This document shows positions 5,160-61,286 of a DNA stretch of 64,000 nucleotides, in pieces. The notes beneath the pieces were generated by a model. The model was not told the DNA's origin and searched no databases. It was given only the letters and a program-made list of their open reading frames with translations. Origin of the DNA: a virus; the IMG/VR virus record IMGVR_UViG_3300045988_149288. The stretch is one strand, 5' to 3'. Each line of letters begins with the position of its first letter. The stretch's first letter is position 1. Both the position numbers and the translations under genes were made by a program.

Positions 5160-6236
5160 CTAACTGAAAAACTCGAACATTGTCGGTCGTTCCAAATTAA
5201 TTTCTTCCTTCGGACCTAACCAACCAGCGATTCTGAACATCGTATCGAAAAGCTGACAGAAAGATTTTCTGAATGCGGTTTCATAGTCAATCTCAAAGTA
5301 TTTATTAAATTCTTGCGGCCAAGATTCGAGATATGCGACTGCTTCAATCGGCGAAGTTTTTCCGTCCATATCCTTGGCTACAATCTTCTGAGATGGCTTT
5401 ACATATACATATCGTAATTTGGAATTATTACGAATCGGGTTATATTTCAACCTGTCCTTAGTAACGATATAGTTGTAGATAATCGAAATCTTTGCACCGA
5501 AAATGAGACCAGTCGGAAGAATCAAACCATGGTCCATGTAATAGTCCATGAGCGTCTCGTATTTCATATCGAATGGCGTCGTATTCATCGCGCTTTCAGA
5601 ATACAGTTCTCTGAATTTGTCCATAGCGATTGTCGTATATTTCGTATAGTTCTTAATACCGATAACCGACGAAATAACGTTCAAATCCGAGCTCTTGAAC
5701 TGGTCATAAACCTTATAGATATATTCCTGCGCTTCTTCCTTACCGATACCATCACAGATTTTGAATGCGAGTTCTTCAGCAGCCGTTTTACAGAAGTCAG
5801 GCATGATCGATTTCTTAATAGGAACGCCCATAATTTTATGCTTCATGTGGTCAAGCGGGTACAATGAACCTTCGCTGTCGATAATGTTACCGATATACAA
5901 CTTCTTGGCAAAACAGAACATGTTTTTGAAGATGTTTTCACGGTTGAAATTAATCTTATTGACAGTATGGAACTGCTTGGCTCGAATGTCGAGAATCTTA
6001 TCGAAGAAACGCTGGAACACGTCCTCGCATTTCTGGAAATAGCTTCGATATTCCTCTTCGTTCGTAATCGATAAACCAGATTCCATCAAACGCTTCTTTA
6101 GCTCAATAATCGAAAAATAAACTGAGTCCGTATCATTATGGATCGCACAGACATCGCGACCTTTCACGACAAGAGGACTCATGTCGTTCATTTGAAATTT
6201 ATCAATCTTTACATCTAATGCTTTCTTAAATTTCAT
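5160..6236 (-). CDS. family-B DNA polymerase, C-terminal cistron (43B-like: motif C, thumb)
   Basis: Motif C HNDTDSVYF; start ATG at 6236 one nt after TAA of upstream cistron (GAGGATTAAAATG with SD GAGGA); first 35 codons of track ORF are out-of-frame overlap. Confidence 0.8.
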   Translation of the reverse strand: MKFKKALDVKIDKFQMNDMSPLVVKGRDVCAIHNDTDSVYFSIIELKKRLMESGLSITNEEEYRSYFQKCEDVFQRFFDKILDIRAKQFHTVNKINFNRENIFKNMFCFAKKLYIGNIIDSEGSLYPLDHMKHKIMGVPIKKSIMPDFCKTAAEELAFKICDGIGKEEAQEYIYKVYDQFKSSDLNVISSVIGIKNYTKYTTIAMDKFRELYSESAMNTTPFDMKYETLMDYYMDHGLILPTGLIFGAKISIIYNYIVTKDRLKYNPIRNNSKLRYVYVKPSQKIVAKDMDGKTSPIEAVAYLESWPQEFNKYFEIDYETAFRKSFCQLFDTMFRIAGWLGPKEEINLERPTMFEFFS

Positions 6237-6237
6237 T

Positions 6238-8445
6238 TTAATCCTCAATACCGAGAAGGTCCGTGTCCTTGTTGAATTCATAAGCATAGATTTCCATTTC
6301 ATCATTACCGCGAAGAACAGTAATCTTTTCATAGAAATCAAACTTATATGTCTTTTCTTCTGTAATAATGGAAACTGTCGAGAATTCCTTAACTACATCC
6401 TTGAGCAAGAACGGAGAAACATAGTATTCATTGAGATTCTTAGTCAACCAGTCTCTCAAGGTAACACGAGCACAACGGCAAATAGCACGAGCAACATCTG
6501 GGTCATACAATGCGAAGCTGTTTGCAAGAGATACACCGTAAACCGAGTTAATGATGAGCTTTTTAGTCATCTGTCGATTATGATACAAATGTTCACCAGC
6601 CTTATCGCCTTTCTTGTGACATTCCTTTTCCTTATTCTTATATACCTTACGTTCTGCAAACACCTGCTTAACAACGTTCGGAAGAATACCGTCATCGCGG
6701 TTATAGAAACCGAGTTCTGCAACGTCTGTCGGAATAACCTCACCTGATTCAATCTGTTCCTTGGTCGGATGAACAACCTTCAATTCCGGAGAGATATGGA
6801 ATTCCATAATGTGGTGCGGATATGACGAGGTAATATCGAAAGACATACAGTCGTCATGTCGACCAGGATAGTCATAGCAATAACCTGCCTTTACCTGGAA
6901 TTCTGGGAACGGATGAGGATCCTTCTTATACGCTTCCCATGCGGCAAGGAAATCCTTTTCAGTTTTCCAATGCTCGAATCTTCTCTGTCCGACAAGTCGC
7001 TTGATTGTATCATAATCATACTTTCCTTCAGTCTGAGCTTCCTTATAAGCATCATAGAAAACACGGAACTTACAATAGTCCTTATAACGTTTTGCGCCCG
7101 GTTCCCATTCAGTGTTCTGGAAGTAATCGTTTCCGTCCTTATCCTTTACGATATAGCAACGTTCGTTTCTCCACCAGTCAACATGATGGTCTTCACGGTC
7201 ATTCAAAACACGGTTGGTCTTATGTAAGAATTTTAAGATATAACCAGTAGTCGTAGGAACCTTCTGTTCAACCTTATCGAGAGTAACAAGGCAATCGAAT
7301 GCATATTCAATAATAAGGTCGAAGAGCTTGTTTTTCTTTTCAAGGTCGACCATAATCATAACGTCTTTTCTGTTATACTTCAGGAAGTTATTACCGTCAA
7401 TCTTGTAGGTTTCAGAAATTGCACCGCTATATTCCAACTTTTGATCATTCAATTCGAGGTTGGCAACATAGTTAAGGGAATACGAAGAAAGAGGCGGATG
7501 AGATCCGAAGACTTCGTACAGTTTCATGTAGTCAAGAGAATACAAACCAGGAATCGTGTACTTCGTTCCAAGTTCAACGTTTTCCATCTTGCGGTCAGTA
7601 ATCTTTTCAGCCACAGGCATCATGCCGAGAGGAGACAGATTCTTTTCCCATTCAACCTTGATGTCGTATTTCTCTCTGAGAACTTCACAACGACGCATGA
7701 TATAGGGAATATCGTATGCGAGCGAGTTCCAACCTGTAATGATGTCAAAATGATTATTGGCGAACCACTTAATCCATTCACGGATAAGTACCATTTCTGA
7801 CTTACAGTACGTATAATTCGGTAAATCCTTCGGGTCATCTGTATATCTGATTGTGCTCCAGGTATAAGATTGACCGGTCTTTGTAGAATAACAAGTAATG
7901 GCGTTAATTGGCCACTGAGCTATTTCAGGAGACGGGAAGTCATAAGAAACGAAACAGCTATCATCATAGGGAAGCCATTTCTGAACTTCAATGTCATAAA
8001 CGAAATACTTGTCATGGTCAAACTTCATATCGAAATCAATAAGACTGATGTCGAGAGTCTTCTTGGTTTTCTTTTCGCAGACCTTAATCAATGTTTCGTC
8101 ATAATACTTACTTCCTGACGCAACTTCAATATCGAAGAAACAGATATTCCATTTGCTCATGTCAACTTGGAGTTCTTCGTTATCGTATAGTTGGTGCATG
8201 TATTTGACTTCTGGACGCAAATTACCTTCACATACGCCTCTAAGACCCATAAGGGAATTACGGTCACTATAATCGAACCGTATCATCGGTGTCTTGTGAA
8301 TGTCAGTAATATTGCTCTTCTTTGAAGGATCCGGCCTGTAGCACCAGTTATGAAATTCAACTTCTTTAAAATCAATATCATCTTGGGCTTTAAAATAGAG
8401 CTTTTGTTTTTTAAAGTCCCAGTAACAATTCTTAAATCCACTCAT
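6238..8445 (-). CDS. family-B DNA polymerase, N-terminal cistron (43A-like: 3'-5' exo, pol motifs A and B)
   Basis: Exo I FFDIEV, Exo II GWNSLAYD, pol motif A DITSSYP, motif B KLIINSVYG. Confidence 0.85.
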   Translation of the reverse strand: MSGFKNCYWDFKKQKLYFKAQDDIDFKEVEFHNWCYRPDPSKKSNITDIHKTPMIRFDYSDRNSLMGLRGVCEGNLRPEVKYMHQLYDNEELQVDMSKWNICFFDIEVASGSKYYDETLIKVCEKKTKKTLDISLIDFDMKFDHDKYFVYDIEVQKWLPYDDSCFVSYDFPSPEIAQWPINAITCYSTKTGQSYTWSTIRYTDDPKDLPNYTYCKSEMVLIREWIKWFANNHFDIITGWNSLAYDIPYIMRRCEVLREKYDIKVEWEKNLSPLGMMPVAEKITDRKMENVELGTKYTIPGLYSLDYMKLYEVFGSHPPLSSYSLNYVANLELNDQKLEYSGAISETYKIDGNNFLKYNRKDVMIMVDLEKKNKLFDLIIEYAFDCLVTLDKVEQKVPTTTGYILKFLHKTNRVLNDREDHHVDWWRNERCYIVKDKDGNDYFQNTEWEPGAKRYKDYCKFRVFYDAYKEAQTEGKYDYDTIKRLVGQRRFEHWKTEKDFLAAWEAYKKDPHPFPEFQVKAGYCYDYPGRHDDCMSFDITSSYPHHIMEFHISPELKVVHPTKEQIESGEVIPTDVAELGFYNRDDGILPNVVKQVFAERKVYKNKEKECHKKGDKAGEHLYHNRQMTKKLIINSVYGVSLANSFALYDPDVARAICRCARVTLRDWLTKNLNEYYVSPFLLKDVVKEFSTVSIITEEKTYKFDFYEKITVLRGNDEMEIYAYEFNKDTDLLGIED

Positions 8446-15512: not shown

Positions 15513-15557
15513 TTACCGTAATACATTGTACTACACAAGCATAATATAGTAAACAGA

Positions 15558-15586
15558 CGGGCGTTTGTAAACCCGTCTTGCTATAT
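15558..15586. terminator. bidirectional terminator
   Basis: agacgggcgtttgtaaacccgtct hairpin. Confidence 0.55.
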
Positions 15587-20442: not shown

Positions 20443-20461
20443 ATTGCAAATATAATAAAAA

Positions 20462-20490
20462 TAAGGCATTTTGTAAATGCCTTATTTTTT
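20462..20490. terminator. bidirectional terminator
   Basis: aaggcattttgtaaatgcctt + T-run. Confidence 0.55.
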
Positions 20491-28064: not shown

Positions 28065-28934
28065 TTAATTATCTTTATTTTCAACATATTCCCATTTTAA
28101 TTTTTCATTAGTTATAGGATCTCTACCTGCAGTTTTTCTTGTTCCATGTAAAACTTCTATAATTTTTGATGCTTTTTTAGCCCATTTTTTTGCATCAATA
28201 ATTGTTTTAAAAATCATACCATTATTTACGCACCGTATAGGTTTATATCTTGTTTCCCATGGATTCCAACCAGTTTCACGTTTTTCTTTATATTTTTCTC
28301 TTGCTAAAATACTATGTTCTTCAAGTTTATTTGGATTTGACCACGTAATTTTATTTGAATTCCTAATTTTTTCACGCCATTCCAGATTATCTTTATTTTT
28401 ATCTATATTATTTCGTAATGTATTACAAATAGTTTCATAATATTCAGAATTAGTCTTATATGTATTTTTCATACCTATTGATTTTCTATTTTTTATTTCT
28501 GGATTATTTGCTATTTGTTTTAACTTATTTTTTATTTTTTCTTTTTCTTCTTCTGTTCTATTTTTCCACATGTTATATGAAATTTCAGATTGCTGTTTTC
28601 GACGTTTATCATCAAAAACAGTACAATGATATTCATTTCTTATAATTTCATAAGTTCTTGATGAAATTTTTGATGTATATGTATTATTTAATGACAAAAA
28701 TATCCACATTGCACATGCGGTTTTTTGACATGGCCAAATTTTATAGCAAAGTATATGTGCAATAAAATGTTCTCGTGGTGTTAATAAAATAAAATTATGC
28801 TTATTTGAAATATATTGTGGAAAAATACATTTTGGAAATATATGATGTTTTTCATAATATATACCATTATGCTTACATCTATTTTCTAATTTTGCCTTTT
28901 TAATCAAATTTATATAAATTTTTCTATAATTCAT
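28065..28934 (-). CDS. HNH-like homing endonuclease (AT-rich islet)
   Basis: YYEKHHIFPKC motif; strongly AT-rich relative to flanks; TATAAATATAAT directly upstream of ATG. Confidence 0.5.
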   Translation of the reverse strand: MNYRKIYINLIKKAKLENRCKHNGIYYEKHHIFPKCIFPQYISNKHNFILLTPREHFIAHILCYKIWPCQKTACAMWIFLSLNNTYTSKISSRTYEIIRNEYHCTVFDDKRRKQQSEISYNMWKNRTEEEKEKIKNKLKQIANNPEIKNRKSIGMKNTYKTNSEYYETICNTLRNNIDKNKDNLEWREKIRNSNKITWSNPNKLEEHSILAREKYKEKRETGWNPWETRYKPIRCVNNGMIFKTIIDAKKWAKKASKIIEVLHGTRKTAGRDPITNEKLKWEYVENKDN

Positions 28935-28945
28935 ATTATATTTAT

Positions 28946-31087: not shown

Positions 31088-31097
31088 ACGTATAATA

Positions 31098-31130
31098 TAG
31101 AAAAAGGGTCGACTTACGTCAACCCTTTTA
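31098..31130. terminator. terminator (GTCAACCC hairpin family)
   Basis: aaaagggtcgacttacgtcaaccctttta. Confidence 0.55.
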
Positions 31131-36657: not shown

Positions 36658-36963
36658 TCATCCCATGGATTGTCTTTTTCCATTTTTTACATCTTCTGCA
36701 ATTTGTTGATATGTTGCTTTTCGAGTACAATCTCTTGAACAATATTTGCATAATCCGAGTTTTAAATTAATTAAATTACATTGATTTATTTTACAATATT
36801 TACAATATATTTCATTTTTATCTTGTAAAATATATTTTATATAATAATCTCTAATATTAAATTCAGATGTTTTTGTAATTTTATGATTATATCTTAAATG
36901 TAATGCAAATTTTTGAAAATTATCATTATTATCTATATAATCGCATAAAGCACATTTTATCAT
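36658..36963 (-). CDS. Cys-rich Zn-finger protein, probable truncated HEG DNA-binding module (AT-rich islet)
   Basis: CALCDY..H..H and DYYIKYIL resemble N-terminus of 53173..54093 (CKICNSEF...YYDKYL); AT-rich; preceded by cassette A. Confidence 0.4.
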   Translation of the reverse strand: MIKCALCDYIDNNDNFQKFALHLRYNHKITKTSEFNIRDYYIKYILQDKNEIYCKYCKINQCNLINLKLGLCKYCSRDCTRKATYQQIAEDVKNGKRQSMG

Positions 36964-37007
36964 AAATACTTCCTTTTATTTTTATAGTTATGGGCATCAT
37001 AACTTAT

Positions 37008-37080
37008 TTTATTTATAAAATAAGTTAGGGAAAGGTTGCCGCCTTTCCCAAATAGCAGGAAGTATTTTTGCTATCTGTCC
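37008..37080 (-). promoter_or_regulatory. cassette A: hairpin + CTAACTTATTTTATAAATA + RBS-sequestering IR
   Basis: shared architecture with cassettes B, C, D; IR AGGAAGTAT (37058-37066) pairs with SD region ATACTTCCT (36966-36974). Confidence 0.5.
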
Positions 37081-37087
37081 TTATATA

Positions 37088-43214: not shown

Positions 43215-43724
43215 AATTTATCCTTAATGCTTAAATATAGCAAATCCATTACGATTCAATTACAACATATATATAAAATTTCCATGATTTTTTAAAATGA
43301 CAGAATATTTTATTTTTAGTTAAAAAATTTTTTGCAAAAACTTTCTATACTTGGGTTTACATATTCAAGTCTGATTCCTCGGAACGAAGACCAATCCAAT
43401 GGAATTGTCGGTAGAGGGTCAGCCATTGAAAACTTCAGATACGGGTTTTCCAGAAATGAGCTGGAATATCGTTTTGAAACATACTCGGTAACAGCTAGTG
43501 GAAGTATCAGCGAAGTGCAGATTAGCAATCTGCACGTTTAGCCGCCATGGTTTTAACGGATATAGCCGAAGTACAGGATGACCGCCTCGTAAGCCGTTAT
43601 GTAAATCCCGAAAGATTGACGATGAAGCTTTATACCAAAAGTGGAATAGTCATAGTCTGGAAGTTCCTTCTAGGCTTATGATCTCTGAATCGCATTACCC
43701 AAAAGATAGAACAAATAAAAATAA

Positions 43725-46700: not shown

Positions 46701-47966
46701 ATGAAATTAACAGAAGCTAAAAAAATACTTGTGGAATATGGATATTTGCTTAAAGAATATTCGCCGCATCAAGAAACATATAGCCATGACAGTGAAGGCT
46801 GGGATGAAGCCGAAAAGCGTTTTAAGGCCGGTGCAGACTTAGTAAAAAAGAAAATTGATTCTTTGGACCTCGAAATTACTTCTGAAAATATGTCAGAACC
46901 CGCTCCGATGAATGATACATGGAATTATACCGTTAGGGCTAAATCTGATAATAATCTGACTTATTATTTTTCATTCCATGAAACTAAGCCAGAACGTCTT
47001 AAAGGAAAAGAAGATGTTAAAGGCGAGATGTATGATTACCGTTATTACGTATCTGTTGACGGTGCAATCAATAAGACTCTTTCGCCTGAAAAATCTTTTG
47101 AAAATTCTATAGATTGCGCTAAAGAAATGATAAATGCGATTGATTCCGTGATAAATATTGATACTTCTGGAGTAATTGCGGTTGCTGATAAGATTAAAGA
47201 TGAGTTAGACCCTTGGACTGCAAAGGGATATACAGTAAATGTTAAGATAAAAGAAGCAAATTATGGACATAATAAAGACTACGAAACATTCCTTGACATC
47301 ATTGTACAAAAGAAACTCAGTGACGAAGTTAGGAAATATACATATCAGGGATTTTCTGAACATTTGGCTGTAGCTTTCACCATTAATGGTAAAACATTAA
47401 AATGGAATATTTCTGCTATAAGAGGACATTCTCCGGAAACGATTTCCGCTGATGAAGGTTCTCTTGATAAAATGACTGAATTGATTCAGAAATATGTTCT
47501 TATAAAATATAATGAAATGCTGAGATCGATGAGCGATTCCAAGAAGCGTGCCAATACAGTCAAACCAGATAATTCTAATAAGAAGAAAGCGCAAGCCCGT
47601 CTTAAAGCACACATAGAGGACTTACTCGAAACCGATCTTATCGGTAATTTCGATAAGGCAGTAGAACTTAATAAGGATTACGTCAACGCCATAATCATGA
47701 AACCTGTTGCAGAAGCAGTAAATGATTATGTATATGATAATTACAGTGACGAAGACGGTAGCGTAGGTACTTGGGATGCTGATGACGCTTGGGATTATTT
47801 CGATGATGACTTTGTTGGTTATATCGAAAAGGAATGGAACGGTAGTATTAAGGACTATTGTGATGAATCCGATATTACAACCCTTGACGAATTACAGGAA
47901 GATGTAAAAGAAAATTGGGATTGGGATAGACCAAGCGAAAGTGCATTAGAATACGACCCATATTAA
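46701..47966 (+). CDS. acidic hypothetical protein (421 aa)
   Basis: plus-strand ORF preceded by TTTTTATAAATATAT...GAGGATTTATG and followed by a terminator. Confidence 0.45.
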   Translation: MKLTEAKKILVEYGYLLKEYSPHQETYSHDSEGWDEAEKRFKAGADLVKKKIDSLDLEITSENMSEPAPMNDTWNYTVRAKSDNNLTYYFSFHETKPERLKGKEDVKGEMYDYRYYVSVDGAINKTLSPEKSFENSIDCAKEMINAIDSVINIDTSGVIAVADKIKDELDPWTAKGYTVNVKIKEANYGHNKDYETFLDIIVQKKLSDEVRKYTYQGFSEHLAVAFTINGKTLKWNISAIRGHSPETISADEGSLDKMTELIQKYVLIKYNEMLRSMSDSKKRANTVKPDNSNKKKAQARLKAHIEDLLETDLIGNFDKAVELNKDYVNAIIMKPVAEAVNDYVYDNYSDEDGSVGTWDADDAWDYFDDDFVGYIEKEWNGSIKDYCDESDITTLDELQEDVKENWDWDRPSESALEYDPY

Positions 47967-47984
47967 TAGTTAATAAATTATAAA

Positions 47985-48015
47985 ATAAAAACCGGTTAAT
48001 TATAACCGGTTTTTA
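47985..48015. terminator. bidirectional terminator
   Basis: aaaaccggttaattataaccggttttt. Confidence 0.65.
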
Positions 48016-48057
48016 TTTACTTGTCTCGTTTTACAAAAATCGTAAATCCAAGGAAAC

Positions 48058-49107
48058 CTAAGAAATCAACATTTGTTTTTTATTTAAACTGTTTAAAAAA
48101 TTACTACCATATTTAAAATTCACATAATCCAAATATTTATCACAGTTTATAATTATTTTAACATTATGTTTTTTCATACAATCATATTTAGCTGCATCTT
48201 TCGTATTTTCAATTAACATTTTTTCATATAAAAATTTTGATTTTATTTCAACAAAAGTATTAAAAACTTTAAAATCTGGAAAATAATAATGTTTTTTATT
48301 ATTCCAATAATATTCAAATTTTTCTGTATGATATTCAAAACGTACATTATGATCTTTTAAATAAATGTAAAATGCAACTTCCCAGCTGCTATCAAACCAT
48401 TTATTATCATAAATATATTTAAACTGTGGCGAAACTGAATTATATTTTTCCATACATGTATTAAACTGTTTTTCTCTAACAACAGCTGCTTTCCATGGAT
48501 GATTAACACCATAATTTTCTAGCCATGTTTTTGCCCGCTTTTCACTAATTTCTTTATTATTTAATGAACATTTATCACCATAACGTTCAATATTAGTATT
48601 ATACATTTTTTCTAAATTATTTACCCATGGCTTATTATATTTTTCTAAACATGTTTGTATAGATTTTTCATGAAAAACTTCTCGATAATTTTCACCATAT
48701 TTTTTAATATTAGTTTTATGTAATTTTTCTTGATTATTATAATTTCTATTTCCATATTTTTCTAAGCATGTTTTATATTGTCCTTTTTCCCGTAATTCTT
48801 TTGAAGCCCAATTATGTTTTACTCCATATTTAGCTAAACATGTTTCTTCTGTCTTTTTACGAACTTCAGGACTATTATGTATTTCTTTAGATATACAATT
48901 TTTACAAATAAATGGAAATTTGAAAAATGTATCAGCTCTTCGAGATACAATAGAATTACATCGTTTACATTTAAATTTAACATGTAATCGATTTACTGAT
49001 TTTATTTTTGGAAGAGTATTAAATAATTCAAAATTATTATTATTGACAATTATTAAATCATTATCTTTTTCAAAATGATCTAGTATTATTTGAATTTCTT
49101 TTTTCAT
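48058..49107 (-). CDS. homing-endonuclease-like protein: Zn finger + repeated KYG modules + PD-(D/E)xK-like C-domain (AT-rich)
   Basis: Five to six repeats of (C/N)LEKYGxxxx; C-terminal YFPDF...VEIK nuclease-like; paralog of 53173..54093; RBS enclosed by IR. Confidence 0.5.
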   Translation of the reverse strand: MKKEIQIILDHFEKDNDLIIVNNNNFELFNTLPKIKSVNRLHVKFKCKRCNSIVSRRADTFFKFPFICKNCISKEIHNSPEVRKKTEETCLAKYGVKHNWASKELREKGQYKTCLEKYGNRNYNNQEKLHKTNIKKYGENYREVFHEKSIQTCLEKYNKPWVNNLEKMYNTNIERYGDKCSLNNKEISEKRAKTWLENYGVNHPWKAAVVREKQFNTCMEKYNSVSPQFKYIYDNKWFDSSWEVAFYIYLKDHNVRFEYHTEKFEYYWNNKKHYYFPDFKVFNTFVEIKSKFLYEKMLIENTKDAAKYDCMKKHNVKIIINCDKYLDYVNFKYGSNFLNSLNKKQMLIS

Positions 49108-49154
49108 ATATTACCTCAGTTATTAGTTATTAGTATGCTGCAACATACTATATT

Positions 49155-49220
49155 ATTTATAAAAAGTTAGACTGACCTTGCAGGGTCAGTCAAGTGTAAC
49201 TGAGGTAACACCTGTCCTTT
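49155..49220 (-). promoter_or_regulatory. cassette B: hairpin + CTAACTTTTTATAAATA + RBS-sequestering IR
   Basis: tatttataaaaagttag + gactgaccttgcagggtcagtc + cctgtcc; IR TAACTGAGGTA (49198-49208) vs TACCTCAGTTA (49112-49122). Confidence 0.5.
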
Positions 49221-50366
49221 TTATGATTTACGTCTTACGCAAATCGTAAAACCAAGAAAAGCTATTAAATATAAACTAGCTAAAATTAAGTATAATATAT
49301 TACCCGTAAAGGTATTTGCAAGAATTACAGAAGTTATACCAGCTAAACCCCAACCAGAAAGTGTCATTGAATGAACAGTTGATAAACAACTATCACCAAA
49401 TTGCTTAGCTAATAATGATGGCAATACAGAAAAATTACCGCCATATGCAAATTCACAGAATAATATACCACCTACCAATAAAACCGGATTTTGTGTATAA
49501 CATAAAAATGCGCCTAAAATACCAATAGTACATATAACATTATAGCTTCCTTTTCGTCCAATATAATCACTGGCCGTACTCATTCCAAATCGACCGCCGA
49601 CATTTGCAACAGCGGTAGCAGCCATGAGTGAAGCAATAGCAGTATATCCAGCATTTAAAAATAAGCTTTTTTCCTGTGAAATCAAAGCGAGTCCGCACGT
49701 AATGTTGATAAAGAACATGAACCAGATGGAAATATATTCTTTCGTCAGGAATTTCGCTTTCCATAGGTTCTTATAAGGAACAGCGGTATAGATGGTCGAA
49801 ATAAATGCAGGATTCGGTCTATATAACCAGGAAGAGAAAGACATTACTACAAGGAAAATCAGTCCCATGAGCAAGAATACAACAGGCAACGTAAAGTTTG
49901 CAAGCAAGTATTCAATCATAGGTGCTGCAACAAATTTACCAAGACCGAAACCACAAATACTTAATCCACTAAAAAATCCTTTATGATTTTGAGATAATGA
50001 TAATAATTGTTTAATGGGCGACGTATAACCTATACCAGTGCCGGTTCCCATAAATGAACAACCAATATAATATAATGGTAAAATTCCGGTATAAGATGCA
50101 AATGAGATAGTTAATAATCCTATTGCAAACAAAATTGTTGAAACTATCGCCATTCGTTTAGGAAACATTTCAACGAATCTTCCAAAAACAGCCGCACCCA
50201 TACCAAGGAAGAAAATAATCAATGTAAATCCAATATCAGCGGAGAACTTTGAAATATTAAAAACCTCCATGATATTTTTAGCATATTGCGAATAATTATA
50301 TACACTTCCTAAAACTAATGGAATAAAAATTCCTGGTAAAACAATATTAAATAAATCTTTTTTCAT
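49221..50366 (-). CDS. major facilitator superfamily transporter (10-12 TM)
   Basis: MFS motif-A-like GRFVEMFPKR and DYIGRKG; 12 hydrophobic segments; AT-rich; flanked by cassettes B and C. Confidence 0.65.
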   Translation of the reverse strand: MKKDLFNIVLPGIFIPLVLGSVYNYSQYAKNIMEVFNISKFSADIGFTLIIFFLGMGAAVFGRFVEMFPKRMAIVSTILFAIGLLTISFASYTGILPLYYIGCSFMGTGTGIGYTSPIKQLLSLSQNHKGFFSGLSICGFGLGKFVAAPMIEYLLANFTLPVVFLLMGLIFLVVMSFSSWLYRPNPAFISTIYTAVPYKNLWKAKFLTKEYISIWFMFFINITCGLALISQEKSLFLNAGYTAIASLMAATAVANVGGRFGMSTASDYIGRKGSYNVICTIGILGAFLCYTQNPVLLVGGILFCEFAYGGNFSVLPSLLAKQFGDSCLSTVHSMTLSGWGLAGITSVILANTFTGNILYLILASLYLIAFLGFTICVRRKS

Positions 50367-50377
50367 AATGCAATATT

Positions 50378-50446
50378 TATATATTTAAAAAAGTTAGGGT
50401 AATGCCGCAAACATTACCCAAGCGCTACGGAAAACGCCTGTCCTTT
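50378..50446 (-). promoter_or_regulatory. cassette C (no RBS-sequestering IR evident)
   Basis: atatttaaaaaagttag + gggtaatgccgcaaacattaccc + cgcctgtcc immediately after stop of 50447..50815. Confidence 0.45.
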
Positions 50447-50815
50447 TTAATTAAATGCCTTCGCTGTCATATCTTCGTCATAAAGTTCTTTATACTCATG
50501 CATAAGTTTCAAATTGAAATGCCAATATGGATCTTCTGCATTATCATATTCGATTTTTCCTGTACACTTGTATTCTTCCTTAGGAATATCCCAATAAATA
50601 TCGAGTCCGCCATCTAATTCTTCGATTTTGAGACTAATATTTGGAAGTATTCCATAAGGGTCAAAGATATGCCCGAAAAATCCAGAAATCTGTCGAGAAA
50701 GATATAATACATTATTGCCATTTACTGGTTTTATCAATGCATTATAAATTTTACGTCTGAATTCAATATTATTATCATCGACTATATTACGCCATTCATC
50801 TTGTGTCATTTTCAC
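50447..50815 (-). CDS. hypothetical protein
   Basis: 122-aa ORF. Confidence 0.35.
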   Translation of the reverse strand: MKMTQDEWRNIVDDNNIEFRRKIYNALIKPVNGNNVLYLSRQISGFFGHIFDPYGILPNISLKIEELDGGLDIYWDIPKEEYKCTGKIEYDNAEDPYWHFNLKLMHEYKELYDEDMTAKAFN

Positions 50816-51591
50816 CTCGTCTTATAACCAAAGGGCACCATTTCGGCCTTTATGAATTCTTTATATTTATTCAAACCAATTTCGTTAATTACCCAATTTT
50901 CATCGACTGGTTTTTTAAAATCATAGACAGGTACACAGTCATATTTTGAGTGTTGATTGAATTTATAAAGATAATTCAGAAACATTGCAATGTCGGTATT
51001 GCAATAATCGATAAAATTCTGACATTCAGTTTTGGTAGCAAATCCAATATACTGATTTTTGAGTTTTAAGGCACTTTCGGGGACATTTTGGACTGGGGTG
51101 TATCTTTCCTTGGATAAAAGTGTACACCAGTCCCAGGCTCGTCTATGGCCTCTTATATCGCTTAATTGGATATACCAGGTATTCTTCTTTCCCTGTTCAG
51201 TTCCGATAGTCTTTTTTCCTATTAAATAAGCGTCAACTATCTTCGTAATTTCCTTATATTTCTCAGGATCCGAAAATCTGTTGAATCTGAGGTCATAAAG
51301 GTCAAGTTGCTTCTTGTCGAACTTGAAAATACCGACATCTGAGAAAAATTCGGCATCATCAAACTTTGCATCTCCGACGACAGTCTCAATACGACTGAAA
51401 GACTCGAATCTTTCGTTAAGAATCGAAATATGCTTGTTATTGATATTTTCCTTGATACGATGGTTGTCAACAAAATCTGTAGGTACTAGCCAGACAGCGG
51501 AATCTGTGAACTTCTCACATTCCGACATTACTTTGAGGTAGAACTTTTCACCTTTACCAATATAAGGAGGATTTCCGATTATCGTAAACAT
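50812..51591 (-). CDS. N6-adenine DNA methyltransferase, C-terminal piece (motif IV NPPY onwards)
   Basis: Begins MFTIIGNPPYIG (gamma-class motif IV, cf. M.TaqI FDLILGNPPY). Confidence 0.65.
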   Translation of the reverse strand: MFTIIGNPPYIGKGEKFYLKVMSECEKFTDSAVWLVPTDFVDNHRIKENINNKHISILNERFESFSRIETVVGDAKFDDAEFFSDVGIFKFDKKQLDLYDLRFNRFSDPEKYKEITKIVDAYLIGKKTIGTEQGKKNTWYIQLSDIRGHRRAWDWCTLLSKERYTPVQNVPESALKLKNQYIGFATKTECQNFIDYCNTDIAMFLNYLYKFNQHSKYDCVPVYDFKKPVDENWVINEIGLNKYKEFIKAEMVPFGYKTR

Positions 51592-52010
51592 TTTAAATTA
51601 CTTTCAGTTTCAAGATTGGAAGCAAGTTTCAAAAAGTCCGCGTCTGTATTTATGGTTATCGACCAGTCCCTGCATTGAACTATATCGTTTCGTTTGAAAA
51701 CGACATCACATACTTCTGGCATGATGTCATAAACTGGTTTTTCACGTGTATTATAAATCGCTTCATACTTTTTGGAGCAAATACCGATTCCAGCATACAT
51801 GTTGGGAAATTTGAACATTCCCCAGACACATGGACGTCGACCAAGATTGTCTGTATAATCCTGACTTGAAAAATGACAAATAAGCGGAAGCTGATGATAA
51901 TACACTGACTTCTTTATTTTTTCATTACCTCTTAGAATGGTAATTTTGATTTTATTTTTATTTAAGAACACACTCAGTCTCCAAATTGTGAATAAATTTT
52001 TGAAATGCAT
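51579..52010 (-). CDS. small protein, tandem paralog 3 of 3 inside split MTase
   Basis: C-terminus RNDIVQCRDWSITINTDADFLKLASNLETESNLK conserved with two neighbours. Confidence 0.4.
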   Translation of the reverse strand: MHFKNLFTIWRLSVFLNKNKIKITILRGNEKIKKSVYYHQLPLICHFSSQDYTDNLGRRPCVWGMFKFPNMYAGIGICSKKYEAIYNTREKPVYDIMPEVCDVVFKRNDIVQCRDWSITINTDADFLKLASNLETESNLKCLR

Positions 52011-52293
52011 AATTAGAATCTAATTTAATTGTCCATCCACGACATGAAACGGTATCGCCTTTAAAAAACTCTGCAGCCTTGATATAAAATGGTAGAGTTC
52101 CAGCCATGAATTCTTTATATTCATCTTTATACAATATTACAAACTTGACATAATTACCATTATTGTCATACTCATACCAGCTAAGACAGGTATTATTTAT
52201 CTCTGAATAACAAACATAGAAAGCTTTTGATTTGTTTTTACGTTTAATCCGAACCTTTATTGCTCCAAGTACATATTTTTTACTGCAATACAT
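51958..52293 (-). CDS. small protein, tandem paralog 2 of 3
   Basis: KGDTVSCRGWTIKLDSNYAFQKFIHNLETECVLK. Confidence 0.4.
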   Translation of the reverse strand: MYCSKKYVLGAIKVRIKRKNKSKAFYVCYSEINNTCLSWYEYDNNGNYVKFVILYKDEYKEFMAGTLPFYIKAAEFFKGDTVSCRGWTIKLDSNYAFQKFIHNLETECVLK

Positions 52294-52714
52294 TTTCCAT
52301 CTCCAAATTGTTTACAAGTCTGTCAATATCGCCGCTAGTTTTGATTTCAAGTGTCCAAGTAGGAAATACAACAGTATCTCCACGCTTGATAATATATGTT
52401 GCACGGTCTGGAGTTAACAAACCATAAAAATACCCAGTATTACTTCTATCGATTTCACTTACGGGAATATACTGTACACCAAGGGCATATTTTTCATCTG
52501 GCGGAACATTAGTATGTGGTTTGCCCATCATTAACATGTTTAAATAATCCATAGTGTCTCGCCATTTTTCGGTCAAATCTGGATTATATTTTTTACTGGT
52601 GAAAACTTCTATTCTAAACCAGGGCGCATATTCGACTCTGCTTGAATGTCCGTTTCTAATTACAGTAAACAAAATAGGCTTTGCATGATTTTCAGTAGTA
52701 TCGATAGAACACAT
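52280..52714 (-). CDS. small protein, tandem paralog 1 of 3
   Basis: RGDTVVFPTWTLEIKTSGDIDRLVNNLEMENVLQ. Confidence 0.4.
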   Translation of the reverse strand: MCSIDTTENHAKPILFTVIRNGHSSRVEYAPWFRIEVFTSKKYNPDLTEKWRDTMDYLNMLMMGKPHTNVPPDEKYALGVQYIPVSEIDRSNTGYFYGLLTPDRATYIIKRGDTVVFPTWTLEIKTSGDIDRLVNNLEMENVLQ

Positions 52715-52722
52715 TTGGCCTC

Positions 52723-53172
52723 CTAAGAAACGAATTCAGCAAATCCGCTATTCTTAATATCGGATTCGTTTACTTCTTCCTTTGGCTTCCAGTTTTCAAA
52801 ATCCCATTTGAAAAAGTCAGCACATACAATATTACGGTTTACAATCTTTGCGTATTCAGGTCCAACAATCTCAAGAATTCGTCTTACACATAAATCTCTG
52901 TTATCCTGCATGAGTTCAACACCATAAAGTGTCTTTACCGCATCTTCTGTTGAAATACCTGAAGCAAGGCGTTTTTTTAACATACCTATTAAAATTTGAC
53001 CATTTCCTGCACAAGGATCTAGAAATTTTGCTTTAGGATCTTTCCATTTAACTTCCGGAATTTTGCTAATCATTTGGTTAATAACAGAAAATGGAGTAAA
53101 TACTTCTCCATTTTTCTTTATACGTTCTTTATCACGTATTATACCGTCATTATTTGTAAACAAATCACACAT
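52723..53172 (-). CDS. N6-adenine DNA methyltransferase, N-terminal piece (motifs X, I-III)
   Basis: GEVFTPFSV (motif X), FLDPCAGNGQIL (motif I FxGxG), CADFFKW (cf. M.TaqI ADFLLWEP) then stop before motif IV. Confidence 0.65.
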   Translation of the reverse strand: MCDLFTNNDGIIRDKERIKKNGEVFTPFSVINQMISKIPEVKWKDPKAKFLDPCAGNGQILIGMLKKRLASGISTEDAVKTLYGVELMQDNRDLCVRRILEIVGPEYAKIVNRNIVCADFFKWDFENWKPKEEVNESDIKNSGFAEFVS

Positions 53173-54093
53173 TTAATCTCTCTCTAAAATGATATTCTTT
53201 ATAAAAGATAGCATATTATCTTTATTTTGTAAATAGTCATTTTCTTTAATTCTTATTAACGTAATACCCAATGATAAACATAAAGCATCTTTTTTAGCAT
53301 CACGTTCCCAAATATCTTTAGCTAATGTATTTTCAATAAAATCTGTTTCTTTATAAATGTTTGGGTCAGCATGCCAATATCTGCCATCATATTCAAATGC
53401 TATTTTTAATTCTGGCAAATATATATCTAATTCTCTACCTTTTAAAATGGATCTATCATGCGCTATTATATTACCGTTATAAAATTCACATATCCAAGAA
53501 TATATTTCAAATTCTGCTTTTGAACCAGCTAAATGTTTTTGTATTTTATTTGCTATTTTTTCTTTAACTTCTGGCCATTGAAATGGATTTTCGAAGCCAT
53601 GATTTTTTATATTTGTAGCCTTTATTTTTTCTCTATTAAAATTTTTACCAAATTTTTTACAGGCTTCTTCAGAATGATAATTACCGTTATGTTTCATTCT
53701 TCGAGTTTCTTCTTGTTTTTTACGATTTATTGGATCTGCAAAATTTGAACTATAACCACAATGTTTAATAAATGTATTTACTTTCTTTTCTTTAATTATA
53801 GAAGATTGTGATGGATTTTTTACACCATATTTTTTAAGACATGTATTTTCACGTTGTAGTTTTTTATTTGGGTCTAACATCTGACATTTAACAGAACAAA
53901 ACTGTCTATATCCTGTAGAAATATTAATATAATGTGTTTTGTTATTGCAATCTGGATTATGACAAATATCTTCATTTTCTCGCTTTAGATATTTATCATA
54001 ATATTCTTTACTTTTTAATTTATGAACTGACTTTAAATGACATACCAATGTATGAAATTTGTCAAATTCGCTATTGCAAATTTTACAATACAT
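53173..54093 (-). CDS. homing-endonuclease-like protein: C2H2 Zn finger + KYG repeats + Vsr/DUF559-like PD-(D/E)xK domain (AT-rich)
   Basis: C-terminal ELDIYLPELKIAFEYDGRYWH; N-terminal CKICNSEF..H..H; adjacent to split MTase; RBS enclosed by IR. Confidence 0.55.
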   Translation of the reverse strand: MYCKICNSEFDKFHTLVCHLKSVHKLKSKEYYDKYLKRENEDICHNPDCNNKTHYINISTGYRQFCSVKCQMLDPNKKLQRENTCLKKYGVKNPSQSSIIKEKKVNTFIKHCGYSSNFADPINRKKQEETRRMKHNGNYHSEEACKKFGKNFNREKIKATNIKNHGFENPFQWPEVKEKIANKIQKHLAGSKAEFEIYSWICEFYNGNIIAHDRSILKGRELDIYLPELKIAFEYDGRYWHADPNIYKETDFIENTLAKDIWERDAKKDALCLSLGITLIRIKENDYLQNKDNMLSFIKNIILERD

Positions 54094-54139
54094 ATTTACC
54101 TCGTAATTTTAAAATATTAATTTCCTAGATTAATTTTAT

Positions 54140-54210
54140 TATATTTATAAAAAGTTAGCCAGGAACTAGGAATTCCTGGCAAGCACTACGAGGTATGCCT
54201 GTCCTTTTGT
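54140..54210 (-). promoter_or_regulatory. cassette D: hairpin + CTAACTTTTTATAAATA + RBS-sequestering IR
   Basis: atatttataaaaagttag + ccaggaactaggaattcctgg + gcctgtcc; IR CTACGAGGTA (54186-54195) vs TACCTCGTAA (54097-54106). Confidence 0.5.
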
Positions 54211-56584: not shown

Positions 56585-56593
56585 AATATAATA

Positions 56594-56625
56594 AAAAGGC
56601 TGACTTTCGTCAACCTTTTTTATTT
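56594..56625. terminator. terminator (GTCAACC family)
   Basis: aaaaaggctgactttcgtcaaccttttttatttt. Confidence 0.55.
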
Positions 56626-60404: not shown

Positions 60405-61286
60405 TTACTTCTTGAGAGCGGCTTCGCGGAGTTCCTTCTTGGCTTCTTCGATACGCTTTCTGATCTTTGCATTGATAGCAGTCATAATCGGTTCAAAGAG
60501 CAAGTCAAAACGGGATTCGTTGAGCTTACCAATGAGGTAGTCGCTCTTAGCGTTCAAGTAACGACCCTTACGGTGCCAGTAGTTGTAGGCTTCAGACTTA
60601 GTAGAGTCGTCTTCGGAAGTATCTTCCTCACCTTCGCCTTCAGAACCTTCTTCAGATTCGCCTTCACCTTCAGTACCCTCTTCAGATTCACCTTCACCAC
60701 CTTCTTCGCCTTCGCCTTCGGTACCTTCTTCAGATTCACCTTCGCCTTCAGCGCCGTTATCTTCGTCACCAAGTTCAGCGTCTCCGAAATCTTCGGTGCT
60801 GGCTTCTTCAGATTCGCCTTCACCTTCGCCTTCTTCGGAACCTTCTTCATTGTTGTTTCCAAGGTTTTCTACCTTGTCAGACAAAGTTTGAATTGCGGTT
60901 GTAAGAGTGGAGAGGAGGTCCTTAAGTTCGGTTGTTACACCGGCTTCAGCTTCCTTGGCAGCGCCATCGTCTTCTTCGCCTTCACCCTTGAAATCTTCGA
61001 GGTTGTCGGTATTTTCTTCTTCTTCTTCGCCTTCGGTAGAAGTTTCGTCATCGGACTGAGATTCGTCGTCAGAACCCTCTTCACCTTCAGCACCTTCTTC
61101 TGGTTCTTCAGAAATATCAAGATCTGAATTCTTTTCATCCTCGTTAGAAAGTTCTTCGAGGTTTTCTTCACCAGTAGAATCATCGGAAGTTACCGGCTTT
61201 TCTTCGTCACCGTCCAAGAAGCCTTCATTGAGGCCCTTCTTGTTGGCACGCTTCCATTCTTCAAAAATTTGCTGTTCGTTTTTCAT
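60405..61286 (-). CDS. hyper-acidic Glu/Gly/Ser repeat protein
   Basis: EGEGESEEGTEGEGEEGGEGESEEG tandem repeats; basic helical C-tail. Confidence 0.45.
   Translation of the reverse strand: MKNEQQIFEEWKRANKKGLNEGFLDGDEEKPVTSDDSTGEENLEELSNEDEKNSDLDISEEPEEGAEGEEGSDDESQSDDETSTEGEEEEENTDNLEDFKGEGEEDDGAAKEAEAGVTTELKDLLSTLTTAIQTLSDKVENLGNNNEEGSEEGEGEGESEEASTEDFGDAELGDEDNGAEGEGESEEGTEGEGEEGGEGESEEGTEGEGESEEGSEGEGEEDTSEDDSTKSEAYNYWHRKGRYLNAKSDYLIGKLNESRFDLLFEPIMTAINAKIRKRIEEAKKELREAALKK
60590..60870. repeat. tandem nucleotide repeats (ccttc(a/g)ccttc...ttcagattc units) encoding E/G/S repeats
   Basis: visible periodic repeat in sequence. Confidence 0.6.

Follow-up and report, generated by a model that had tools for sequence, protein, structure and literature searches.

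A transporter gene of a distant T4-type phage as the probable target of homing endonuclease genes at both of its ends

INTRODUCTION

A stretch of viral DNA of 64,000 nucleotides (nt), IMG/VR record IMGVR_UViG_3300045988_149288 and here called the window as a whole, contains an open reading frame (ORF), 49221..50366, for a transporter of the major facilitator superfamily (MFS). The gene is bracketed by two same-strand copies of a short element, which we term cassettes, and is adjoined downstream by a homing-endonuclease-like ORF, 48058..49107 (HEG1). A sequence-only reading of the window had proposed that the transporter gene was acquired, and possibly moves as a unit, as cargo between the flanking repeats. 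Which part of this locus is mobile, the transporter gene or the elements around it? Comparison with relatives of the window, numbered L001 onwards, leads us to an answer to which we give a probability of roughly 0.7: a resident, selected MFS gene of the SfMCT/OFA type would have been invaded at its two ends by HEG1 and by a second endonuclease gene, since lost (HEG370), and the cassettes would be late-only leaders of endonuclease genes.

RESULTS

The transporter gene and its place in related phages

The product of ORF 49221..50366 matches Pfam MFS_1 (PF07690) over residues 30-345, above the gathering threshold (E 2.5e-22; 79.7 bits against a cut-off of 33.4). This hidden Markov model (HMM) assignment upholds the earlier identification of an MFS transporter in a phage genome and rules out a holin or an abortive-infection membrane protein. 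Both motif-A-like strings that had been pointed out are present; in the alignment, GRFVEMFPKR (62-71) and SDYIGRKG (266-273) fall on the corresponding OxlT and SfMCT loops, as the family demands of motif A (GxxxD[R/K]xGR[R/K], in the TM2-3 and TM8-9 loops of two six-helix halves). The alignment covers residues 3-377 of a template with 12 transmembrane (TM) helices, which favours the TM topology proposed earlier; a three-dimensional model did not confirm it.

More than 100 protein clusters share 64-95% identity with the phage MFS protein, on contigs of up to 431 kb. In L001-L007 the gene occupies the same locus as in the window and HEG1 is absent; no cassette stands beside it in L001-4 and L007, where the intergenic regions were read. 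Synteny around the gene is kept on six IMG/VR contigs, at seven loci in total, as well as on several contigs from ENA and Logan, and the same synteny in independent assemblies rules out bacterial contamination or a chimeric assembly. In the endonuclease-free relatives the MFS start abuts either the stop codon of a homolog of the window's 122-amino-acid (aa) ORF (TAATATG) or that of the methylase fragment. The sequence-only reading had looked to phages lacking the insert for comparison. A search with a flanking gene in place of the MFS led to the same contigs; among them, none of those holding enough sequence is without the MFS gene, and the relatives that hold it at this locus without HEG1 or cassettes contradict its acquisition between repeats.

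Pairwise ratios of nonsynonymous to synonymous substitution (dN/dS) among phage MFS alleles, which differ by up to 36%, range from 0.06 to 0.26. With viral-gene neighbours in independent assemblies, a cellular homolog in a chromosomal metabolic context (below) and this purifying selection, the gene is, as far as sequence comparison reaches, a resident and selectively maintained auxiliary metabolic gene. A tblastn search with the MFS protein against 50,697 deposited phage records returned only matches of 24-25% in five unannotated Listeria and Salmonella 'phage' records, and the PHROG that it matches, 2034, is without assigned function. Our literature searches found no paper on such an MFS in a phage genome, nor any on huge phages of Fibrobacter. 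In L042 (3852-4880) and L044 (2242-3270), which have a Band_7/Thy1 context, the predicted product of the gene has 342 aa and not 378, perhaps through an alternative start or damage at the 5′ end.

HEG1 behind a displaced 3′ end of the transporter gene

The earlier description of ORF 48058..49107 as homing-endonuclease-like was sustained by matches of its product to Pfam DUF7487 (7e-23) and to PHROG 3339 'homing endonuclease' (1.6e-12), beside a weak match to Phage_endo_I. A C-terminal PD-(D/E)XK domain retains an intact catalytic motif (E243, D278, E287 and K289), and the nuclease was compared with Bax1 (5.3), Vsr (5.0), VRR-NUC (4.7), the homing endonuclease I-Bth0305I (4.5) and Hjc (3.5). 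From motif and fold, HEG1 is predicted to be a free-standing PD-(D/E)XK homing endonuclease gene. No paper mentioning DUF7487 was found in the literature. A group I intron around the endonuclease genes was rejected, an Rfam search at gathering thresholds having found only cow-rumen-2.

Orthologs of HEG1 share 80-96% identity, with the next best sequences all at or below 46%, and lie invariably directly downstream of an MFS gene, in four different phage gene contexts. When the window was compared with L007, the flanks proved to be 96-100% identical, with sharp breaks at ~50815 and 48066. Between these breaks the window has the 122-aa ORF, a cassette, the MFS gene, a second cassette and HEG1, and L007 has an MFS allele only, 60-82% identical. 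L011, a phage contig with unrelated flanks (PolyA_pol, AAA_28 and a 370-aa DUF7487 gene upstream; SLT downstream), contains a block that matches 48024-50395 of the window at 95.2% identity. Identity measured in 60-nt windows showed the MFS gene itself to be a mosaic. From ~49800 to 48050, through the MFS 3′ part, cassette and HEG1, L011 matches the window at 98-100% and L038 at 93-100%; in the MFS 5′ part, identity to L038 is only 48-73%. Between 50395 and 49965 the values are 92-100% for L017 and 82-95% for L011, against 42-78% for L017 over the remainder of the MFS gene. Protein P0035 has the same mosaic pattern as these nucleotide tracts.

The last ~15 MFS codons (LIAFLGFTICVRRKS, then the stop codon) are a surrogate C-terminus carried by the HEG1 element. 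Behind HEG1 lies an out-of-frame remnant that ends in 13 residues (GFLGFTIFVKRDK) matching exactly the C-terminus of the L007 allele, which has no endonuclease gene (3′ end of the type ...TTTATTTCATAGGGTTCTTAGGGTTCACAATATTTGTT...), and the same terminator comes next. By blastn, window 48021-48066 matches the MFS 3′ ends of relatives, and behind HEG1 in L011, L038, L042 and L043 there are remnants of their own resident MFS alleles. Such a remnant of the resident 3′ end indicates that the element inserted into a pre-existing MFS gene, and we regard it as the decisive evidence that HEG1 would have entered a resident. In L064 the MFS gene and a cassette are followed by only the last 45 codons of HEG1, evidently a degenerating copy. 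HEG1 thus displays what is expected of an endonuclease gene, namely presence/absence polymorphism with a co-conversion tract and a constant association with its target.

We propose that the HEG1 element comprises the ~15-codon surrogate MFS C-terminus, the leader cassette and the HEG1 ORF. It would have inserted at about codon 366 of the MFS gene (TM12), and repair would have co-converted ~580 nt of the MFS 3′ part, with a donor tract that varies in length.

Related nucleases occur near the gene in other phages. L017 encodes at 6171-7907 (minus strand), convergent with MFS, a 578-aa fusion of a DUF7487 endonuclease-like region, with the PD-(D/E)XK string YYPDFKV...YIELKG, and a C-terminal methyltransferase (Pfam Methyltransf_15, 9.8e-6). 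Other DUF7487 proteins are fused to PF01555, PF04480 or PF18741. An IS605 OrfB/TnpB-like gene (Cas12f1-like TNB domain) lies a few genes downstream of MFS-HEG1 in L038 (6667-7851, minus strand) and also in L039 and L040.

The upstream cassette as a scar of HEG370

The L017 sequence AAGGACAGGCGTTTTCCGTAGCGCTTGGGTAATGTTTGCGGCATTACCCTAACTTTTT is identical to the upstream cassette of the window, over 58 nt (L017 3617-3674). There, the cassette, TATAAATA and a leader precede a 370-aa-type DUF7487 gene, HEG370, the middle of which is masked by an N run and the 3′ end of which (...ACATTTTTAAATATATAAATATTGCATT) runs into the MFS ATG. In the window, the junction of CTAACTTTTT with TAAATATATAAATATTGCATTATG is the 5′ part of the L017 cassette fused inside the T-run with the final 29 nt of HEG370, and these 29 nt are the coding 3′ end of HEG370 in both L011 and L017. 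The anti-Shine-Dalgarno (anti-SD) arm of this solo cassette pairs at -13.0 kcal/mol with the ribosome-binding site (RBS) of L017 HEG370, versus -5.0 kcal/mol with the MFS 5′ region. We interpret the upstream cassette as the scar of a deleted second endonuclease gene, HEG370.

According to this proposal, HEG370 would once have sat just upstream of the MFS start and co-converted ~400 nt of the MFS 5′ part, and the MFS 5′ segment of the window, being of the L017 type, agrees with such co-conversion by the lost gene. HEG370 would then have been deleted between TTTTTA(T)AAATA microhomologies, leaving its leader behind as a solo cassette. The late promoter that had been suggested for the MFS gene has a candidate: a perfect TATAAATA ends 7 nt upstream of the ATG, behind a terminator-like hairpin, and the window's MFS gene is probably transcribed from it. 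A side effect of the scar would be to insulate the gene from upstream transcription.

The cassettes and their proposed control of endonuclease translation

The two cassettes (50447-50375 and 49221-49154) are 61% identical overall and have in common the boxes AAAAGGACAGG, CTTG, CTAACTTTTT and TAAATA, so that the earlier observation of same-orientation repeats around the MFS gene stands. The box AAAAGGACAGG alone is within chance (3 matches versus 1.2 expected; 10 of 100 shuffles reach 3), and CTAACTTTTTNTAAATA exceeds it (3 matches versus 0.29 expected; 0/100 shuffles). The whole architecture is present 4 times in the window, and a pattern scan located it in 21 more IMG/VR stretches. Each of the other copies seen stands before a homing-endonuclease-like ORF; most of these ORFs are DUF7487-like, and in the translations of a few an HNH-like HH motif was recognised by eye.

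The HEG1 leader comprises a AAGGACAG box, an anti-SD hairpin (~49211-49197), a terminator-like hairpin (49191-49170), CTAAC-T5, TATAAATA (49161-49154), a third hairpin and the SD sequence GAGG. When the read-through RNA of HEG1 was folded, GUGUUACCUCAGUUAC in the 5′ arm paired with GUAACUGAGGUAAUAU in the SD region, at -40.4 kcal/mol overall (z -6.7). Over 23 distinct instances, which include several orthologous HEG1 copies and are not all independent, cognate anti-SD/RBS duplexes have a mean of -15.3 kcal/mol versus -8.0 kcal/mol for non-cognate ones (0/10,000 permutations). The anti-SD arm varies among copies yet always matches its own RBS. Between the two pairing arms lie a G+C-rich, terminator-like hairpin with a T-run and, in every copy, TATAAATA.

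In the window TATAAATA occurs 18 times, with 17/18 on the coding strand (6.6 expected, both strands together); from this strand bias and from T4 we infer that it is a late promoter. At minus-strand positions 28939, 58975, 62596, 50374 and 10238, 4-10 nt separate its end from the next ATG, and late mRNAs from such boxes would be leaderless or nearly so if their starts are placed as in T4.

Collectively, these data point to the cassette as a portable 5′ leader of homing endonuclease genes. In transcripts reading through from upstream, the anti-SD arm would hide the endonuclease RBS, and only late-promoter transcripts would be translatable, as in T4 I-TevI, segB and Aeh1 mobE. In these genes, as in I-TevII and in I-TevIII, the RBS is hidden in upstream transcripts and free in late-promoter transcripts (PMC2988022).

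Family and predicted substrate of the transporter

A PDB profile search built on 12 phage alleles matched only two structures, SfMCT (the L-lactate/H+ symporter of Syntrophobacter fumaroxidans, a SLC16 homolog; 6g9x) and OxlT (the oxalate:formate antiporter; 8hpj), at E 1.3e-14 and 1.2e-12. The ligand and proton-site residues of SfMCT have been shown by mutagenesis and structure (PMC6573034). Five of the ligand residues are identical in the phage protein: Y119, N276, R280, Y331 and F335 of SfMCT correspond to Y114 (TM4), N255, R259 (TM8), Y308 and F312 (both TM10). Replacements are conservative at three more (L28 by V22, L145 by F140, F359 by L336), and C362 corresponds to a different residue, W339. 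The third proton-site residue of SfMCT, D378, lies beyond the aligned stretch; the other two are taken up in the Discussion. Y114, N255, R259, Y308, F312 and both motif-A loops are invariant in the 12 diverse alleles. The carboxylate site of SfMCT is therefore predicted to be retained, with Arg259 (TM8) held by Asn255 and accompanied by Tyr114, Tyr308 and Phe312.

In OxlT, R272 aligns with phage R259 and K355 with the invariant W339. R272 (TM8) and K355 (TM11) are the two basic residues that serve the dicarboxylate oxalate. One arginine with no second basic residue speaks for a monocarboxylate rather than oxalate, and the most likely role of the phage protein is transport of a monocarboxylate through the inner membrane of the host.

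Cellular homologs were sought in a scan of one genome per species. Contigs of Fibrobacter metagenome-assembled genomes (MAGs), at 55% G+C, have the MFS alone in common with the window, at 66-76% aa identity. The gene order FabV, DUF2334, acyl-coenzyme A (CoA) synthetase, MFS, HemL-like is kept at every Fibrobacter locus with enough flank, and the MFS gene starts within ~100 nt of the AMP-forming acyl-CoA synthetase. The best NCBIfam match of this synthetase is MbcS, at 441 bits and thus below the cut-off of 850; MbcS is reported as the short branched-chain carboxylate CoA ligase of S. aureus (PMC10026030). Contigs labelled Paludibacteraceae, at 50% G+C, carry a 73% identical MFS in another chromosomal context. 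Other 'MAG' matches, at 29% G+C, were discarded as mis-binned phage contigs. Both bacterial clades interleave with phage clades in a midpoint-rooted neighbour-joining tree, and the gene, which is shared with gut bacteria (Fibrobacter and Paludibacteraceae-labelled MAGs), was probably acquired from them.

Since the Fibrobacter homolog lies directly downstream of a short-chain (MbcS-like) acyl-CoA synthetase and of FabV, our best guess is that the phage protein imports short or branched-chain volatile fatty acids (VFAs), as CoA primers for lipids or as carbon during infection. F. succinogenes needs branched-chain and straight-chain VFAs as lipid primers. An SPFH/flotillin-like membrane protein is encoded by the same phages as this candidate VFA carrier.

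The phage and its host

The window appears to derive from a distant T4-type phage, the close relatives of which are herbivore gut or rumen metagenome contigs of 411-415 kb. Its gp43-like DNA polymerase is ~30% identical to cyanomyovirus gp43, and it further encodes UvsX, an RnlA-like RNA ligase, an NAD-dependent DNA ligase, an M16 peptidase, an SPFH/flotillin-like protein and a protein combining cytidylyltransferase-like and NUDIX domains. IMG/VR relatives are syntenic with it at 81-94% nt identity, on contigs that reach 411 and 415 kb, and record names together with the Rfam cow-rumen-2 match indicate their herbivore gut or rumen origin. Megablast of window 47000-52000 against the 50,697 deposited phage records gave no match, and no tRNA genes were found in the window.

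About 12 intergenic sites on the minus strand (for example 15543-15579, 20448-20488, 31094-31129 and 56585-56621) carry modules of a stem-loop and TTGACA/TTTACA-N17-TATATT (repeat families D3, D5, D7 and D9), which suggest a host RNA polymerase with a sigma-70-like consensus. The promoter consensus of Bacteroidales differs from this one. L015 (2366-4138, minus strand) and L016 (2378-4162, minus strand), more distant MFS-carrying phages, encode a glycoside hydrolase family 10 (GH10) protein, with CBM_6 also in L016; it is a fibre-degradation-type gene and may hint at a fibrolytic host. On the strength of the sigma-70-like early promoters, the GH10/CBM6 gene of a related phage and the Bacteroidales consensus, Fibrobacter is slightly favoured over Paludibacteraceae, a preference short of an established host assignment.

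At 43509-43613 (plus strand, opposite to most window genes) lies a cow-rumen-2 RNA (Rfam RF02947; 107.5 bits against a gathering score of 66). The region is kept at 69-80% nt identity in the divergent phage loci L005 (287-554) and L008 (13908-13973), so that this orphan metagenomic RNA motif appears to belong to these huge phages.

Layout of the locus and other islands

The features of the locus are listed in Table 1. The hairpin behind the remnant is apparently the original MFS terminator, and the 101-aa ORF behind the fourth cassette is probably the remnant of an endonuclease gene.

Table 1. Coordinates of the MFS locus and of the further leader cassettes in the window
Feature	Coordinates	Strand	Basis or remark
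122-aa ORF	50447..50815	-	no Pfam or PHROG match; absent in L007
Upstream (solo) cassette	50375..50447	-	~70-nt element
MFS transporter gene, SfMCT/OFA-like, 381 aa, predicted monocarboxylate carrier	49221..50366	-	Pfam, NCBIfam, alignment
MFS 5′ mosaic segment and 29 nt upstream	49966..50395	-	common to alleles with upstream HEG370
MFS 3′ mosaic segment, putatively co-converted with HEG1	49221..49800	-	identity to L011 and L038
HEG1 leader: cassette copy 49221-49154 and ~45 nt of leader	49108..49221	-	repeat search, folding
HEG1, 349 aa, DUF7487	48058..49107	-	Pfam, PHROG
Out-of-frame remnant of resident MFS C-terminus (FLGFLGFTIFVKRDK, then stop)	48017..48064	-	overlaps HEG1 stop codon
Terminator hairpin, shared with convergent gene 46701..47966 (+)	47983..48018	-	directly follows MFS stop in L007
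Third leader cassette (54208-54142) upstream of HEG2	54094..54208	-	duplex -16.0 kcal/mol, rank 1
HEG2, 306 aa, DUF7487-like	53173..54093	-	Pfam DUF7487 1.1e-7; GC 25.2%
Fourth leader cassette (37084-37010) and 101-aa zinc-finger-like ORF	36658..37084	-	duplex -16.8 kcal/mol, rank 1

The MFS gene had been described as strongly AT-rich, which its G+C content of 33.3% shows to be overstated; the description holds for HEG1 (21.9%; 9.7% at third codon positions). The whole window has 38.2% G+C, and the polymerase and UvsX genes 40-45%. Two further AT-rich islands, 28065-28934 (23.7% G+C) and 36658-36963 (20.3%), both on the minus strand and without a Pfam match, are probably more homing endonuclease genes or their remnants. 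KYG-repeat-like DNA repeats (family D11) are common to HEG1 and the first of these islands, whose ATG is 4 nt away from a TATAAATA box.

Upstream of the 122-aa ORF, at 50812-53172 (minus strand), an N6-adenine methyltransferase appears split into 52723..53172 (motif I FLDPCAGNG; Pfam N6_Mtase 1.6e-7) and 50812..51591 (beginning MFTIIGNPPY, motif IV). Between the fragments are three paralogous small ORFs, 52280..52714, 51958..52293 and 51579..52010, with a common C-terminal W-T/S-L/I...NLE-M/T-E motif and no Pfam or PHROG match. The arrangement is kept in L007 at ~94%. Window 52741-53200, the methylase N-fragment beside HEG2, is 67-85% identical to L007, and the sequence further on 92-100%; a second tract of co-conversion associated with an endonuclease gene seems to be present here.

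Imperfect 24-30-nt tandem repeats (CTTCxxCxCCTTC..., families D1, D4 and D6) lie at 60623-61099 within ORF 60405..61286 (minus strand), the product of which would be an acidic Glu/Gly-rich repeat protein. ORFs of 638, 517 and 438 aa, tested against Pfam and PHROGs, gave no match.

DISCUSSION

Our results suggest that the mobile parts of this locus are endonuclease genes and that the transporter gene is their target. Several observations weigh against one or another part of this interpretation. One HEG1 context, that of L041, is without a remnant. The MFS gene has no recognisable SD sequence, and TATAAATA is so near its ATG that the mRNA would be nearly leaderless. The best NCBIfam match, SfMCT (NF049980; 2.8e-55), scores 187.5 bits against an equivalog cut-off of 320, and OFA (TIGR00890, TC 2.A.1.11; 2.5e-35) scores 122.1 bits against 374.85. 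The OxlT model TIGR04259 gives 57.7 bits against a cut-off of 335, and the Fibrobacter homolog, at 212.5 bits, is also under the SfMCT cut-off; by these scores the phage protein would be a relative of the OFA family and not a curated member. An AlphaFold2 model from a 12-sequence alignment reached a mean confidence (pLDDT) of 43, and the 12-helix fold rests on the alignment. The SfMCT proton-site residues H250 and D257 are replaced by Q231 and N238 and so are not conserved. The Paludibacteraceae homologs (73%) are about as close as those of Fibrobacter (66-76%) and have no acyl-CoA synthetase neighbour, the direction of transfer cannot be read from a neighbour-joining tree affected by recombination, and both substrate and direction of transport rest on residue conservation and on gene neighbourhood in the putative donor genus.

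Two other histories of the locus have to be set against endonuclease invasion. The original proposal, in which recently acquired cargo moves as a unit bounded by the two cassettes through recombination or transposition at the repeats, can draw on the same-strand cassettes around the MFS gene, on the 95% identical block of MFS and HEG1 in another phage context, and on an MFS gene somewhat AT-richer than the core genes. The limits of that block, however, are 48024 and 50395, the latter within the upstream cassette, and neither coincides with the end of a repeat; the two repeats are only 61% identical; and the upstream cassette of L011 is a different, diverged copy preceding HEG370. Relatives with the gene at the same site but no cassettes, the resident MFS remnant behind HEG1 and the position of cassettes before homing endonuclease genes throughout these phages make the cargo model very improbable. 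What survives of it is that MFS sequence does travel with HEG1 (48024-50395 in L011), although as a co-converted target and not as repeat-bounded cargo, and the sequence-only reading as a whole is thus partly supported. An alternative account of the upstream cassette holds that it is the ancestral MFS promoter and that HEG370 inserted between it and the gene in L017. The two states differ only by the endonuclease ORF, and their polarity is not directly observable. Yet endonuclease-free relatives have no cassette upstream of MFS, every other copy directly precedes a homing endonuclease gene, the solo anti-SD arm fits the RBS of HEG370 far better than the MFS 5′ region, and the window retains 29 nt of the coding 3′ end of HEG370, all of which leaves an ancestral promoter improbable.

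Concerning the function of the transporter, a carrier that exports or exchanges fermentation acids (formate, lactate or acetate, by OxlT-like antiport) and so sustains fermentation and pH in the infected cell is an unlikely alternative to VFA import, though one to keep in view. The best relatives include the antiporter OxlT and the OFA family, and the loss of the SfMCT proton-site residues would fit another coupling mode. SLC16 and OFA-type carriers are reversible, and Fibrobacter excretes formate, acetate and succinate. K355 of OxlT, needed for oxalate, is instead an invariant Trp in the phage protein, and the position of the Fibrobacter homolog beside acyl-CoA synthetase and FabV suggests uptake followed by activation; both points are compatible with monocarboxylate export. 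Far less credible is that the protein is kept for a role other than transport, such as superinfection exclusion, membrane remodelling or receptor masking, or mainly as a homing platform. Exclusion is a frequent activity of inner-membrane proteins in phages, homing endonuclease genes have a hotspot in this gene, and the gene has no obvious SD sequence. These arguments are opposed by purifying selection across alleles differing by up to 36%, by the invariance of ligand-site residues and both motif-A loops in 12 diverse alleles, and by a surrogate C-terminus that keeps the MFS ORF intact, which implies selection for the full-length protein.

If endonuclease invasion is accepted, HEG1 can be placed beside the free-standing homing endonuclease genes of T4-type phages (seg and mob), which likewise show presence/absence between near-identical genomes, abrupt breaks in identity and variable co-conversion. 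Seg and mob genes are also, like HEG1, AT-rich ORFs with their own regulatory signals and with degenerate and deleted copies (review PMC2988022). They differ in encoding GIY-YIG or HNH nucleases where HEG1 has DUF7487 and PD-(D/E)XK, in lying between genes and not inside the 3′ end of a target ORF with a surrogate C-terminus, and in targeting DNA-metabolism genes and not a transporter gene. The mobile endonuclease element of Allomyces mitochondrial atp6 reportedly brings with it a foreign piece of gene for the C-terminus (Paquin, Laforest and Lang, 1994). It resembles HEG1 in its 3′-end insertion, its replacement C-terminus and the displaced resident 3′ end left downstream; it is mitochondrial and of another nuclease family, whereas HEG1 resides in a phage and has a separate promoter leader.

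The leader cassette uses the same RBS pairing as T4 I-TevI, I-TevII, I-TevIII and segB and Aeh1 mobE, where the late promoter is likewise so placed that the inhibitory arm is lost. Unlike the T4 RBS hairpins it is modular, with the boxes AAGGACAG, TTGG and CTAAC-T-run-ATAAATA and an added terminator-like hairpin, and it is reused by at least two nuclease types (DUF7487 and, by eye, HNH-like HH motif) across many phage contigs. T4-type phages reportedly also contain 'mobile regulatory cassettes' called PeSLs, a stem-loop plus an early sigma-70-type promoter (Arbiol et al., 2010). PeSLs and the cassette are both short intergenic stem-loop-promoter repeats able to mediate deletions and shuffling; PeSLs are not endonuclease-specific and have early promoters, in contrast to the late promoter and the anti-SD arm tuned to each endonuclease gene seen here. 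The window's own early-promoter stem-loop repeats (families D3, D5 and D7) are of the PeSL kind.

With SfMCT (PDB 6G9X, 6HCL) the phage transporter has the fold family and five identical ligand residues in common, and with OxlT (PDB 8HPJ) the MFS fold family, Trp replacing K355; it differs from both in being phage-encoded, below curated cut-offs and of predicted substrate. Phage transporter-type auxiliary genes include the PnuC-like nicotinamide mononucleotide transporter of vibriophage KVP40 and cyanophage PstS. These are likewise host-derived uptake functions in large lytic phages, although family and substrate differ.

The locus therefore brings together known kinds of element, namely an auxiliary metabolic gene, a free-standing homing endonuclease gene and T4-type translational control. 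New are the conservation of this transporter subfamily among huge gut phages, with its link to Fibrobacter, an endonuclease element inserted in the 3′ end of a gene with a surrogate C-terminus, and the packaging of the T4 'late-only' translational control as a reusable leader cassette. The locus would record the life cycle of an endonuclease gene, from the empty site through invasion with a surrogate end, co-conversion mosaics and degeneration to a precise loss that leaves a solo leader. For annotation, short direct repeats flanking a gene in such phages are no evidence that the enclosed gene is the mobile part.

Solute carriers are seldom reported as conserved genes of lytic phages, and the present one spans many huge-phage contigs from ruminant and other guts. 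The cellular genes nearest to it belong to a fatty-acid-primer locus in Fibrobacter, which is a key degrader of fibre. It is possible, though we hold it only tentatively, that herbivore-gut phages of ~400 kb have long kept, under purifying selection, a host-derived VFA carrier that feeds the acyl-CoA/lipid-primer pool of the infected cell, and that two endonuclease lineages, with surrogate gene ends and a portable late-only leader, share this gene as a platform for homing and attack it from either end. If true, this would be a phage-encoded nutrient importer acting on the currency of rumen cross-feeding. The gene offers a host clue for an uncultured phage clade and the testable hypothesis that huge phages may rewire the use of volatile fatty acids by a rumen bacterium.

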